This document shows, piece by piece, positions 9,776 through 27,042 of a stretch of 32,000 nt of DNA; the stretch's first letter is position 1; each line of letters opens with the position of its first letter. The DNA is taken from positions 120,001-152,000 of the IMG/VR virus record IMGVR_UViG_3300035670_013237; one strand, written 5' to 3'. Origin of the DNA: a virus. The notes beneath the pieces are model-generated. The model was not told the origin of the DNA. It did no database searches and saw nothing but the letters and a program-made list of their open reading frames with translations. The position numbers were made by a program, and so were the translations under genes.

Positions 9776-10156
9776 ATGAAACTGACAATCGGTATTCTTA
9801 GAAAGATCATCAAGGAAGAAGTGAAAAAGTCAATGAAGCGATCAACTCTGCGCGAATCCCGTTTCGGTGATTCAGACTACGCCATTGAGCTGGACATTTC
9901 CGACGAGCTTTTCCGTAAAGCCCCCCGTATGGGAGATGACGTGACCCAACTTCTAGCCCAGGCTTCACGGAATCTACGTGGTCTTCCGGGATTACCGCCC
10001 GGCACTGTTGCAACAGTCGTCAACCCATCAGGTCCGGGCGGCGGCAATCCCGTGGTCCAAATTTCTTTCACAGACGAGGAAGTGGCCTGGGAGTGGTTCA
10101 GCGTGTGGCAGGACACGGATGACCTCGGTGATCTCCACGCCCTCGAAGTCCAATAA
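9776..10156 (+). CDS. hypothetical protein with N-terminal MKLTIGILRKIIKEE motif
   Basis: Listed ORF with SD GGGAGAG upstream, followed by intrinsic terminator 10178..10212. The N-terminal 15 aa are shared with 10759, 22149, 26546 and 26710. Confidence 0.7.
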   Translation: MKLTIGILRKIIKEEVKKSMKRSTLRESRFGDSDYAIELDISDELFRKAPRMGDDVTQLLAQASRNLRGLPGLPPGTVATVVNPSGPGGGNPVVQISFTDEEVAWEWFSVWQDTDDLGDLHALEVQ

Positions 10157-10177
10157 CTGTAAATTCCACCCCAATCA

Positions 10178-10212
10178 GAAAGGAGAGCCCACAAGACTCT
10201 CCTTTGTTTTTT
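10178..10212 (+). terminator. rho-independent terminator after 9776..10156
   Basis: Stem GAAAGGAGAG/CTCTCCTTT(G), 9-nt loop, then TTTTTT. Confidence 0.7.
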
Positions 10213-10258
10213 AAGCCGACGTCGCCCGGGAATCACACCTCAATCGAGTGGGCACCAC

Positions 10259-10289
10259 GGTGTAAATCCTCTGCGATCCGTGGTACAAC
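10259..10289 (+). promoter_or_regulatory. promoter cassette (10316..11462 unit)
   Basis: GGTGTAAATC, 15 nt, TGG-TACAAC, then AGATTCATCAGG and SD GGAGG. The decamer and first part of the spacer are identical to 9669-9688. Confidence 0.6.
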
Positions 10290-10315
10290 AGATTCATCAG
10301 GTCGGAGGATGCAAC

Positions 10316-10417
10316 ATGGAACTCGAAACCTTCTTCTTCTCTTGGGTATCTTGGCCTCTCTGGGCAGTCCTCGGCGGCCTCGCGGTCGCCGCGGTGGTCG
10401 AACGGAAGCACCGGTGA
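10316..10417 (+). CDS. candidate small membrane peptide (33 aa, MELETFFFSWVSWPLWAVLGGLAVAAVVERKHR)
   Basis: Too short for the ORF track. ATG 10316 is 7 nt after SD GGAGG, downstream of promoter 10259..10289. Third codon positions are far more GC-rich than in the overlapping listed frame (10204..10734). Its TGA overlaps a GTG (GTGA) that opens the family C paralogue. Confidence 0.45.
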   Translation: MELETFFFSWVSWPLWAVLGGLAVAAVVERKHR

Positions 10418-10734
10418 ACATCACGGAGCACCCCATCATCAATGACGTGTACTGGAGGGCGGACAGGTACCAACTCGTCTCCCACCCCGGCTCACACTTT
10501 GAGGTCTGGGTCTACCGGGGTCCTGATCTTGTCCTCGCGCTGTCCTTCCGCCTGGGGGACACGATCTGGTTCGTCTCTCGAAAGAGCCACCGTGACCACC
10601 GTGGAAAGCTCCTGCGCGTCACACCCCAACTGGGGTACGTCCTCGACCCATGGAACGGAGAGACCCGGCACCTCGAGCTCCGGAGACTCGCCTGGTCAAA
10701 CATCACAAAAAGTCTCGGACCACCCCATATTTAG
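10414..10734 (+). CDS. hypothetical protein, paralogue family C
   Basis: Same frame as listed ORF 10204..10734. The GTG at 10414 is coupled to the upstream small ORF. The alternative ATG 10309 abuts the SD with no spacing and gives an Arg/Pro-rich extension with GC-poor third positions. Confidence 0.6.
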   Translation: MNITEHPIINDVYWRADRYQLVSHPGSHFEVWVYRGPDLVLALSFRLGDTIWFVSRKSHRDHRGKLLRVTPQLGYVLDPWNGETRHLELRRLAWSNITKSLGPPHI

Positions 10735-10758
10735 GGTCTGGACATCTAGGAGTGCCAG

Positions 10759-11082
10759 ATGAAGATTACACTGAGACAGTTGAAGAAGATCATCAAAGAA
10801 GAATTGACCAACATCGGTCCCAACCGCGCCGACCACAAGCAAGCCCTCGTGGACCTGTGCAGAGAAGGAGGCTTGAGCGGATGCTGGCCTGATCCCGTCA
10901 TTGCGACCCTCGAGGACAATGCGGCCCGCGGTGTGTCGGGACCCGCCCTCGTCCGCGCAGGGGTCACATCCCTCGTGAATGATTGCCTCCCGTCAGATTG
11001 GCGGATGGACCCCATCGGAACGAGAGCACTCGCCACTCCAGTGATCGTGAAGCTCATCGCGATGATGGGCTTGGGCCAGTGA
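10759..11082 (+). CDS. hypothetical protein with N-terminal MKITLRQLKKIIKEE motif
   Basis: Listed ORF. SD AGGAG 5 nt upstream. Confidence 0.7.
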   Translation: MKITLRQLKKIIKEELTNIGPNRADHKQALVDLCREGGLSGCWPDPVIATLEDNAARGVSGPALVRAGVTSLVNDCLPSDWRMDPIGTRALATPVIVKLIAMMGLGQ

Positions 11083-24956: not shown

Positions 24957-25153
24957 ATTTGACGTCGAACATCGAGCTCATCATCCTGCTCTACATTGCC
25001 ACTTTCTTTTTTCTAGGTGTGATTTTCGCAGCTGGCATGGCAATCGGGTATAAAATGCGCGGTCGTGAGCTGCGGTACATAAAAAAATATTATCAAAAAA
25101 ATCTGGATAAAGAAGATGTCCGTAGCTCTAGCAGCACAAGCAGTCAAAGCTAA
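24953..25153 (+). CDS. small membrane protein (66 aa), holin/antiholin- or i-spanin-like candidate
   Basis: Listed ORF with a TTG start overlapping the upstream stop (TTGA). One TM helix (IELIILLYIATFFFLGVIFAAGMAIGY) and a basic tail. Confidence 0.5.
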   Translation: MNLTSNIELIILLYIATFFFLGVIFAAGMAIGYKMRGRELRYIKKYYQKNLDKEDVRSSSSTSSQS

Positions 25154-25442
25154 ATATTGGAGGTGGATGCCGGGTATGTTAGCATGTCTTCATGGTAAAT
25201 CTTTTAGAGTTTCGTTTGGGGGTGTGCCTTCTGGAGCAATTCCTGACCTTGATGATGAGACCACATTAAATTGTATTTTGCACTTGGTAAGGGTTATGCG
25301 AAGTGACCACGGCTGGGAACCCCGAGCACTCTATCATGACCCTGAACCTGACTGGGTCGTTGATCCTCCAACATCTATGCGACAGACTCTACATCCTAGC
25401 TACACTTCAGCACTTATCGCAGCACTTTGCAGTTTCAAATAA
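25116..25442 (+). CDS. hypothetical protein, paralogue family D
   Basis: Listed ORF. Motifs KYWRWMPGM and PDLDDETTLNCILHLVRVM. Confidence 0.65.
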   Translation: MSVALAAQAVKAKYWRWMPGMLACLHGKSFRVSFGGVPSGAIPDLDDETTLNCILHLVRVMRSDHGWEPRALYHDPEPDWVVDPPTSMRQTLHPSYTSALIAALCSFK

Positions 25443-25487
25443 TCGTCTAAGTCTAAAACGGGTACCTATCTAGGTGTAGGAGTTAAT

Positions 25488-26204
25488 ATGGACAATTTAT
25501 TGAAAAAAGCTGGTGAGTTGGCGTTAGAGCGCGCGCTGGTCGAGTGGAAGCGTGATGTGGTTGATCCTCCGCGTCGTTCATTGCAGGATCCGTTGTTTGA
25601 TGATGACCGCAAGGCGATCGATGGGTACATTCGGAATGGCGCGCAGTTGGGAGGCGTGTCGAATCCGGGTAAGTTCGTTTATCAGAAGGATGGTGACTAT
25701 GAGTGGTGTGGAGCCTTTCACGCTCACTGTTGGGAACCGTTTATTCAACCCGACCTGAGGCAGTTGTACTGGCCTTCCACGTATCGTCTTGATTGTTATG
25801 GGCGTTATGTTGCCGGGTTTGCGTCTGCAAATGCTAAGGCCACCGCGGCGAAGTATCCTCGACCTGTAGCTGATGGGCGCAAGTACCTGAAGTTGACCGC
25901 GGCGTCGACACCTGAAGAGGTCACGGCGTTTGGCCCACGCCCAGGTGACATTCTGCTGGTGGGCTTTGCGCCAGGTTATGGTTATGGCTCACATGTCACG
26001 CTGGTCGAGCGTTGGGATCCTGCCACACGCATCTTCCACACTGTTGAAGGCAATGCGACAGGCGTTGGTCCCGATGGTTCACGGCGCCAGGGCGTGATCA
26101 AGCACCAGCGCCCGCTTGGGACTGCGACTCCGGCGAAGACGTACCACGCACTGAGGTTAATTCGTCCTGGTATTAACGACCTAATCCCAGGCTCCGTTAA
26201 GTGA
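25488..26204 (+). CDS. NlpC/P60-CHAP-like cell-wall hydrolase (endolysin candidate)
   Basis: Listed ORF with SD TAGGAG. A Cys-His-polar triad in the usual order and context: YEWCGAFHAHCW, GSHVTLVERW, FHTVEGNATG. This resembles the TIGR02594/CHAP families. Confidence 0.7.
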   Translation: MDNLLKKAGELALERALVEWKRDVVDPPRRSLQDPLFDDDRKAIDGYIRNGAQLGGVSNPGKFVYQKDGDYEWCGAFHAHCWEPFIQPDLRQLYWPSTYRLDCYGRYVAGFASANAKATAAKYPRPVADGRKYLKLTAASTPEEVTAFGPRPGDILLVGFAPGYGYGSHVTLVERWDPATRIFHTVEGNATGVGPDGSRRQGVIKHQRPLGTATPAKTYHALRLIRPGINDLIPGSVK

Positions 26205-26470
26205 GGATATACACAAGCATGTATAATAAACTGTTGACGTTTATTGTTATGTTGGGCATTATATCGTCAGGTTGTTTTTATGAGCCTGTGCGTGTTGTTC
26301 GACCTGAGCCTGTGAGAGTTGAGTCTCCGCGCCCGCCTTCTCGAAGAGTTGTGAGCGCAGGATATCGATCTCTTGGGACATGGATTCATGTCTGTGAGCC
26401 GTCACGGCATGGACACTATGTGTATAGCCAGTGTTATTGGGTTCGACTCAGCGAATATTCGAGATATTGA
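26201..26470 (+). CDS. lipoprotein, o-spanin-like candidate
   Basis: Listed ORF. GTG 26201 overlaps the hydrolase stop; ATG 26219 is an alternative start. Lipobox-like IISSGC after a hydrophobic segment. Pro/Arg/Val-rich mature part. Followed by terminator 26494..26527. Confidence 0.6.
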   Translation: MRIYTSMYNKLLTFIVMLGIISSGCFYEPVRVVRPEPVRVESPRPPSRRVVSAGYRSLGTWIHVCEPSRHGHYVYSQCYWVRLSEYSRY

Positions 26471-26493
26471 AAATTAGCTGGTGATTTGTGTAT

Positions 26494-26527
26494 GCTCCTT
26501 CATGATATTTTGTGAGGGAGCTTTTTT
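26494..26527 (+). terminator. rho-independent terminator after 26201..26470
   Basis: Stem GCTCCTTCA/TGAGGGAGC (one mismatch), 10-nt loop, then TTTTTT. Confidence 0.6.
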
Positions 26528-26545
26528 GTTTTATACTTAAAGGAT

Positions 26546-26713
26546 ATGAAGATCAAGCTTGGTGAATTGCGGCGCATTATTCGTGAGGCGATCAAGGATG
26601 TACAAGAAGATTCTGTGCCTCCCGATAAATGGGCAGCCAATACAGGCAAGCCCGCTAAAGAAGATGACCTTCAACGCCTTGGTGAGGACGAAGAAGATGA
26701 GGATGAGGGATGA
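26546..26713 (+). CDS. small acidic protein (55 aa) with N-terminal MKIKLGELRRIIREA motif
   Basis: Too short for the ORF track. SD AAAGGA upstream. ATGA overlap with the next gene. Confidence 0.5.
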   Translation: MKIKLGELRRIIREAIKDVQEDSVPPDKWAANTGKPAKEDDLQRLGEDEEDEDEG

Positions 26714-27042
26714 AGTCTTCTCATAAAAACTTGAGGGCTCTCATAAAAGAAATTCTGTTGGCTGAATATGGACAAGCCGCTTCGGCCTCTGGCTCGGATC
26801 CCACTGACCCAAAGGGTTTTTATTCGTACGAATTGACACGTGGGAACGATATCCAGGGTTTCTGGTATCGTTCTCCTGCACGGTCAATGGGATCGGATGG
26901 GGATCCAGGGCGCCCTAGTGATGCTCTCGACTATATAGGGATGAGCGCTAAAACTGCGACCTCTGAAGAAGGAGGTGAAGAGGCACCTGAAGAGACACCT
27001 GAAGAGACACCTGACTACCTCAACGCTTCTTCAGCTCGTTAA
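26710..27042 (+). CDS. hypothetical protein with degenerate N-terminal motif (NLRALIKEIL)
   Basis: Listed ORF, coupled to 26546..26713. Confidence 0.6.
   Translation: MKSSHKNLRALIKEILLAEYGQAASASGSDPTDPKGFYSYELTRGNDIQGFWYRSPARSMGSDGDPGRPSDALDYIGMSAKTATSEEGGEEAPEETPEETPDYLNASSAR

Follow-up and report, generated by a model that had tools for sequence, protein, structure and literature searches.

The internal proteins of phage T4 are the textbook example of phage proteins that enter the host together with the DNA, and they do so to disarm its defenses. To our knowledge, T4-type internal proteins cannot be recognized by sequence outside close relatives of T4. They are highly diverse, and the only part they have in common is an N-terminal propeptide of 10–19 residues that targets them to the scaffolding core (PMC3012670; PMC9026906). 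This propeptide is removed by the gp21 protease, which cuts after L/I-x-E (PMC9026906). The proteins of the T4 capsid-targeting sequence (CTS) system are IPI, IPII, IPIII, Alt, gp24, gp22, gp21, gp67, and gp68. Here, we describe a conserved N-terminal peptide, hereafter the tag, that begins five small proteins encoded by a 32,000-nucleotide stretch of virus DNA (positions 120,001 to 152,000 of IMG/VR record IMGVR_UViG_3300035670_013237). The whole stretch is referred to as the window, and it looks like part of a jumbo phage (271-kb contig).

Other systems also attach short peptides to proteins destined for a shell. Encapsulin cargo-loading peptides are short and are needed to load diverse cargo into an HK97-fold shell. 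Unlike the tag, they are usually C-terminal, bind the shell rather than a scaffold core, remain uncleaved, are cellular, and have a dissimilar sequence. In phiKZ-type giant phages, the propeptide cleavage motif is (S/A/G)-x-E, and we know of no N-terminal peptide common to their propeptides. These phages (gp175/gp245 proteases) are comparable to the present case in that propeptides of inner-body and ejection proteins occur in very large phages. The N-terminal regions of many head proteins of phiKZ, 201phi2-1, and SPN3US are removed after Glu by a gp21-related protease (PMC9026906). The tag differs from the phiKZ type in having Ile/Leu/Val at P3, as in T4, and in being conserved over the whole 14-residue peptide. 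It lacks (S/A/G)-x-E. A genome with multisubunit RNA polymerases is a further mark of the phiKZ type; the window and related contigs code for a factor of the sigma-70 type, and no search aimed at RNA polymerase subunits was made.

By analogy with T4, we favor with modest confidence the reading that the tag is a portable N-terminal capsid-targeting propeptide, the counterpart of the T4 CTS in uncultured aquatic T4-like and huge myoviruses. The first-pass annotation had left packaging into the capsid beside docking to a common partner and localization. The capsid option is preferred because of the ending of the peptide (two hydrophobic residues, any residue, and Glu; phi-phi-x-E), the T4-type head genes of the carriers, and the accumulation of tag genes in the structural region of the genome LR756508.1.

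Five Proteins in the Window Share an N-Terminal Peptide

The five genes (Table 1; named by their start coordinates) share the consensus start MK(I/L)xLxxL(K/R)xII(K/R)E. All of them exist where they were first annotated, with the translations then quoted, and the public JGI/Logan annotation calls each as a gene with the identical start codon. The regular expression [LIVM][KR][KRAQ][LIVM][LIVM][KR]E has exactly five matches in the six-frame translation of the window, all on the + strand and all at residues 8–14, that is, 7 residues past the start Met. A still looser core finds the same five and no others. A degenerate back-translated DNA pattern matched 3 genes, against 0.00 expected from 100 dinucleotide-preserving shuffles. 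Chance is excluded as the source of the shared N-terminus.

Conservation is at the level of the peptide. The tails had been described as unrelated and the codons as different, and both descriptions hold: from residue 19 onward the best BLASTP E value is 0.79, and 7 of the 12 residues identical in 10759 and 22149 are encoded by different codons. Synonymous codons are mixed across the tag proteins (six for Leu, CGN and AGR for Arg, and three for Ile), and selection therefore acts on the peptide and not on the RNA. Tag genes also lie, as noted initially, on both sides of a shift in guanine plus cytosine (GC) content, from ~0.56–0.66 (positions 1–19000) to ~0.46–0.54 (19000–32000). The drop falls near 19–21 kb, where the cumulative GC skew begins rising.

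PHROGs and Pfam searches with the five window proteins found no family. Gene 2 (10759) has a GC content by codon position of 0.59/0.46/0.73, typical of coding sequence, and is a called gene on 4 contigs; no relatives of its cargo were detected. The sole database match of gene 3 (22149) in a homolog search was itself, and it is called as a gene on 3 more contigs. Genes 4 (26546) and 5 (26710) belong to real homologous families, A and B, respectively. Family A members include P0004-P0054 and P0035. Family B has 34 homologs and a conserved Gly/Pro-rich core, DPTD..GFY.YE..RG.DI..FWYRSP..GSDGDPGRP. The start of gene 5 overlaps the stop of gene 4 (ATGA), and the pair is a conserved overlapping two-gene cassette in related jumbo-phage contigs, where it lies upstream of the sigma factor and ligase genes (syntenic pairs in stretches L055 and L057). 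The N-terminus of gene 5, MKSSHKNLRALIKEILLA, had been considered a weaker case, and it proves to be a true member, with orthologs in related contigs that begin MKIRISELRRIIRR and MRIRISELRKLIRK.

The Tag Is a Separable Module on Diverse Cargo

At least 133 unique complete tag proteins were collected, with a median length of 111 aa, and their tails form at least 85 BLASTP clusters. Positions that the search left unconstrained are nevertheless conserved, including S6 (56%), E/Q7 (81%), E15 (67%), and V/L/I16 (77%), and conservation ends sharply past about residue 18. When positions 13 and 14 were not fixed in the search, 206 of the 231 N-termini still had E14. Those without it mostly have [LIV]-x-E at positions 16–18, as in IIRKVLSE and IIRRSLRE. 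All five window genes encode I12-(K/R)13-E14, which matches the prohead-protease motif (L/I)-x-E.

The protein from 9776 illustrates how the tag is joined to its cargo. A search of 1.84 billion representative proteins gave 17 representative relatives. In an alignment of 16 family sequences, 8 carry the tag and a variable linker, and the other 8 begin directly at the conserved domain. AlphaFold2 predicts a helix at residues 5–23, a linker with a predicted local distance difference test score (pLDDT) below 50 at residues 26–31, and a compact beta-alpha-beta-beta-alpha domain at residues 35–115 (pLDDT 75–95; predicted template modeling score 0.61). A fold search with this domain against PDB and BFVD gave no match at E <= 0.001. 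For family B, a helix is predicted at residues 2–20, with the remainder at low confidence. Elsewhere, the tag is fused to DUF192 and DUF1292 domains, and in L077 and L121 a single ORF contains two tags in tandem. The tag is thus a separable N-terminal module, virus-specific and conserved at the peptide level. Full-length homology of the five proteins, which would have explained their common start, is excluded by the unrelated tails together with the separability of tag and cargo.

Tails are mosaics of recurring short modules (L016, L023, L046, L013, L078, L155; P0002, P0003). One of these modules, DLNKDG(K/E)NDFEDVMIARMKASGM, is EF-hand-like. Others are ITxxExxxWxxGNWGFxSE and LPxWVQDHxxVAHEN. 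One 70-aa protein bearing such modules is mislabeled by JGI as ‘flagellar hook-basal body complex protein FliE.’

Distribution of the Tag in Viruses and Cells

One DNA pattern was scanned against IMG/VR, bacterial and archaeal genomes (596 Gbp), and metagenomes. IMG/VR yielded 47 stretches with 51 sites, every one of which is the start of an open reading frame (ORF; 40–325 aa where complete). The carriers are contigs of up to 340 kb, several of them with 2–3 copies of the tag. Metagenomes (marine, including TARA and GOS, and lakes) yielded at least 120 stretches with at least 138 sites, nearly all of them ORF starts. The observation made on five genes is confirmed and is far bigger than the window alone could show.

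The cellular genomes contain 4 matching stretches. Two are junk ORFs of 15 aa and 22 aa. The other two (L052/L053) belong to one 17-kb contig of a ‘Bdellovibrionota MAG’ (metagenome-assembled genome), JBBAUR010000072.1, which has two tag genes. It is probably a phage contig mis-binned into a bacterial MAG, because it carries a 232-aa tag protein nearly identical to one on IMG/VR contigs; alternatively, it may hint at the host. The motif is virtually absent from the bacterial and archaeal genomes, and this excludes a comparable frequency at host N-termini, the other circumstance that would have made the five starts unremarkable.

A tblastn search of 50,697 phage records with tag consensus peptides and with families A and ‘DLNKDG’ found no cultured carrier. 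The sole match was the uncultured 484-kb genome LR756508.1. No mention of the tag motif strings was found in the literature. Genes near the tags are of tailed-phage types, namely tail sheath, terminase, GroEL, UvsX, SbcC-like nuclease, ligase, sigma factor, and major head protein. Judged from these sequences, uncultured aquatic myoviruses of large and huge size appear to be the only carriers to date.

Tag Genes and Head Genes

T4-type head genes were found in carriers L005, L049, L015, L131, and LR756508.1. The gene order in L005 is a tag gene (325 aa), a tag variant (70 aa), the portal gene, a 291-aa gene, and a gp21-type protease gene. In L049, three tag or variant genes lie directly 5' of the protease gene. 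In L015, the order is three genes with the tag or a variant of it, a scaffold-like gene (acidic, coiled-coil), and a gp23-type capsid gene.

The complete genome LR756508.1 (484,177 bp) was read whole. Its tag variant, M(K/R)L(S/T)E(R/K)KLR(R/K)I(I/V)(K/R)EE, keeps the 7-residue offset from Met. The ORF map places six tag genes between the portal and protease genes and six more past the protease gene, followed by an acidic scaffold-like gene (170,106-171,836) and the capsid gene. With a looser definition of the tag, 13 matches lie in the interval between the portal and capsid genes, which makes up 4.6% of the genome (binomial P = 6e-8), and the 78-kb structural region holds 28 of 44 matches (P = 2e-12). 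Because the limits of these regions were fixed with the data in view, the P values serve as an indication only. One of these tag genes (170 aa) belongs to the GYxTPFAF family. A member of this family sits between portal and protease genes in the cultured Flavobacterium phage immuto, and a relative in cyanophage S-SCSM1 is annotated ‘virion protein.’ The head region of LR756508.1 shows no enrichment of the T4 late promoter TATAAATA, with 3 occurrences vs 2.05 expected.

Ordinary marine T4-like phages (protease-centered loci L201-L256) offer a separate observation. Close to the N-terminus of their gp22-like scaffold proteins, which are encoded ~1 kb downstream of the protease gene, lies a helix, ILASTMKEEIKELVKESL, similar to the tag core, and the small genes just 5' of the protease gene begin MSKLKNIIKELTKE, MRTLLQEMKERF, or MKSFLKQIEESF. 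From this resemblance, the tag may mimic a scaffold self-association helix.

The portal and prohead-protease genes of tag carriers are also split by large insertions (L005, 1456-4752; L049, 67-1878; L264, which is LR756508.1, 44-2923 and 9480-11204). The split portals are 1099 aa (HNH match) and 959 aa, and the split proteases are 574–604 aa. Going by their sequences, the insertions look like inteins or homing-endonuclease insertions.

Comparison With the T4 Capsid-Targeting System

In the mechanism proposed for a capsid-targeting propeptide, the amphipathic helix of the tag, with I3, L5, L8, I11, I12, and phi16 on its hydrophobic face, would dock each new protein onto the scaffolding core during prohead assembly. 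A gp21-type prohead protease would cut after the conserved Glu (I12-x-E14, or phi16-x-E18), and the cargo, freed inside the capsid, would be ejected into the next host. The small acidic members may act as disposable core filler, like T4 gp67. The original suggestion of a targeting or packaging signal on unrelated cargo stands insofar as neither full-length homology nor frequent occurrence in cells accounts for the peptide and the context favors the capsid; the core binding, cleavage, packaging, and ejection of tag proteins are what we infer from that context.

Several features of the T4 system recur. In the T4 genome record, IPII and IPIII begin MKTYQEFIAE followed by A, gp24 begins MAKINELLRE, gp22 MLKEQLIAE, and gp21 MNEPQLLIE. 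Like these, the tag is a short N-terminal amphipathic peptide on otherwise unrelated proteins, with an MK start, and its I11-I12-K/R13-E14 corresponds to the phi-phi-x-E ending of the T4 N-termini. Carriers encode gp20-, gp21-, and gp23-type head proteins, and some tag genes lie between the portal and protease genes, the place of genes 67 and 68 in T4. Other tag genes are scattered near tRNA genes; T4 ipI-III adjoin a tRNA cluster and the lysozyme gene. The tRNA and CHAP-domain neighbors in the window (Table 1) recall this T4 arrangement, a likeness that may be a coincidence. The 55-aa product of 26546 is built in the same way as T4 gp67 (80 aa), as a helix with a polyacidic tail.

The two systems also differ. 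The tag is 14–18 residues long vs 10 in T4, which corresponds to about one extra helical turn. There are at least 85 cargo families and at least 13–30 genes per huge genome, vs about 8 in T4. The cargo is mostly acidic rather than basic, and the carriers are exclusively uncultured aquatic phages. By this comparison, the T4-style principle of a targeting propeptide is already known, and what is plausibly new is the longer, different sequence and the far larger cargo set.

A number of observations weigh against a capsid role. The likeness to the T4 CTS MKTYQEFIAE is not significant: the two have in common only that they start with MK, contain an acidic residue followed by a hydrophobic one, and end in phi-phi-x-E. 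The looser tag definition gave no N-terminal match in two T4 stretches (L259, L260). The tails are mostly acidic (84% net negative, median charge -6), whereas T4 IPI-III are basic. A few cargos would be odd capsid passengers, among them those with a hydrophobic signal-peptide-like stretch (L026, L042) and the DUF192 domain, and some family B members carry 4–8 extra residues ahead of the helix. No head genes are found in the window (32 kb of the 271-kb contig), where the five tag genes have small genes, two tRNAs, a sigma factor gene, and a ligase gene as neighbors. Most tag genes are scattered, and the 1.13 Mb of motif-derived loci, taken together, show no enrichment of head genes near tag genes; only four lineages of these loci show head genes. 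Because there is no overall enrichment, the head-context argument rests on the gene order in those loci and on LR756508.1. The clustering in LR756508.1 uses the motif variant, and the matches in that genome are all on one strand.

A broader proposal, which we consider possible but hold more tentatively, is that the tag is a universal ‘zip code’ for capsid-delivered proteins in the uncultured marine and freshwater group of T4-like and huge phages. If so, hundreds of injected-effector families could be read from metagenomes by their first 14 residues, and these would include anti-defense, host-takeover, and prohead-core proteins. With at least 85 cargo families behind it, a conserved and searchable tag would open up the injected or prohead-core proteome of abundant uncultured aquatic phages, one huge genome having at least 13–30 tag genes, and would supply many candidates for new anti-defense proteins. 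The peptide would also be a portable protein-packaging tag and a candidate for loading foreign proteins into large capsids.

Alternative Roles of the Peptide

The helix could instead be a generic docking or oligomerization module, either for a non-capsid hub (host RNA polymerase, ribosome, a chaperone, a protease adaptor, or the phage sigma factor) or for mutual assembly. Strong conservation over very different phage lineages suits a conserved partner, and in the window and its relatives the tag genes adjoin sigma factor, ligase, and nucleotide-metabolism genes, not head genes. Phage GroEL and sigma factors recur nearby, and acidic tails fit nucleic-acid mimicry. We nevertheless regard this explanation as unlikely, as it leaves unexplained both the retained (I/L/V)-x-E ending and the accumulation of tag genes around portal, protease, and capsid genes in LR756508.1, L005, L015, and L049. 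Even if the capsid reading were wrong, a conserved N-terminal peptide found only in viruses would point to a widely shared partner.

The tag might also have no function of its own. The proteins would then be fast-diverging paralogs of one ancestral small protein, with the helix as the slowest-evolving part. Tag genes do form tandem arrays (2–3 within 1.5–2 kb in L071, L109, L099, and L145). Families A and B are truly homologous, and shuffled internal modules are common to the tails. Descent from one protein sits poorly with the half of the 9776 family that has no tag, with the presence of the tag on the cellular domains DUF192 and DUF1292, with 85 tail clusters that have no detectable similarity, and with the sharp drop in conservation past about residue 18. 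It is accordingly improbable as a general account.

There is little likelihood that the peptide is a membrane-targeting or export signal, for instance an atypical signal-peptide n-region or an amphipathic helix that binds membranes. Such a role would fit the Ala-rich hydrophobic stretch directly past the tag in two cargos (L026, L042) and the DUF192 cargo, a domain that is often exported in bacteria. Against it, the tag is highly charged, alternates charged with hydrophobic residues, and leads into Glu-Glu and acidic tails. The motif is also absent from cellular proteomes. A Sec/Tat h-region (~7–15 residues) was found in 0 of 5 window proteins and in 2 of 37 inspected IMG/VR proteins, where it lies downstream of the tag. 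The signal-peptide reading was rejected on composition.

Upstream Elements and Other Features of the Window

Of 226 tag genes, 36 (16%) have the element ATA[ACG][ATG]TA 5–6 nt ahead of the ATG, as do 73 other ORFs, and its position peaks sharply (loci include L006, L011, L012, L021, L029, L041, and L042). Many of the other ORFs carry offset helix variants, such as LLREFIRE, LRKLIRE, and LIREFVKEY. From its sequence and position, the heptamer may be a -10-like element giving leaderless mRNAs. The signals in front of 26546 (Table 1) make 26546/26710 look like a self-contained, nearly leaderless transcription unit. The first codons of leaderless transcripts matter for initiation, and the heptamer, together with the -10-like TATACT 8 nt before ATG 26546, would suit a constraint on RNA or translation initiation at the 5' end of (near-)leaderless mRNAs in place of protein function; this is the least credible of the explanations, as 3 of the 5 window genes have no close upstream element (10759 has a Shine-Dalgarno-like TAGGAG and 26710 starts at the ATGA overlap) and each conserved residue is encoded by a mixture of synonymous codons. 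It was this codon usage that led us to reject an explanation at the RNA level.

Table 1. Coordinates of tag genes and other features in the window and in the genome LR756508.1.
Feature	Location	Strand	Remarks
Window
Gene 1, 126 aa	9776..10156	+	Tag MKLTIGILRKIIKEEVKK (9776-9829), then linker and compact alpha/beta cargo domain
Gene 2, 107 aa	10759..11082	+	Tag MKITLRQLKKIIKEELTN (10759-10812)
tRNA-Lys(UUU)	11689-11764		Just downstream of tag gene 10759
ATAGATA heptamer	22136-22142	+	6 nt upstream of ATG 22149
Gene 3, 136 aa	22149..22559	+	Tag MKITLSQLKRIIKEEASR (22149-22202); cargo is an ORFan
Weak CHAP-domain protein (below Pfam cut-off)	25488-26204		Just upstream of 26546
Terminator-like hairpin (12 bp + T-run)	26494-26521	+	Consensus match only
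Promoter-like TTGTGA-16-TATACT	Ends 8 nt before ATG 26546	+	Directly after hairpin; consensus match only
ATACTTA heptamer	26533-26539	+	Ends 6 nt before ATG 26546
Gene 4, 55 aa, family A	26546..26713	+	Tag MKIKLGELRRIIREAIKD, then short polyacidic tail
Gene 5, 110 aa, family B	26710..27042	+	Diverged tag MKSSHKNLRALIKEILLAE
tRNA-Gln(UUG)	27694-27764		Just downstream of tag gene 26710
LR756508.1
TerL	141,956-143,566		T4-like
Portal	145,787-149,524		T4-like
Protease	156,489-158,174		T4-like
Major capsid protein	171,895-173,535		T4-like
Tail sheath	204-208 kb		T4-like

Besides the tag genes, the window encodes the sigma-70-type factor, a DUF2201 protein, and two tRNAs. The sigma factor was uninformative as a taxonomic marker. 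The window also holds a truncated gene start, and in the related stretches L001 and L002 the same gene continues into DNA ligase. The DUF2201 protein (464 aa; 2322-3716) has a putative metallopeptidase N-domain and a VWA-like domain. Its match, phrog_1314, bears the annotation HNH endonuclease. The DUF2201 gene adjoins the ligase gene in the related L055. Two small ORFs, 20677-21018 and 25116-25442, have a common N-terminal K(K/Y)WRW(I/M)PGM(A/L) (MSEMSLDPEMQRLAQEAIKCKKWRWIPGMA, MSVALAAQAVKAKYWRWMPGMLA) and, on this likeness, may be a second paralogous pair.

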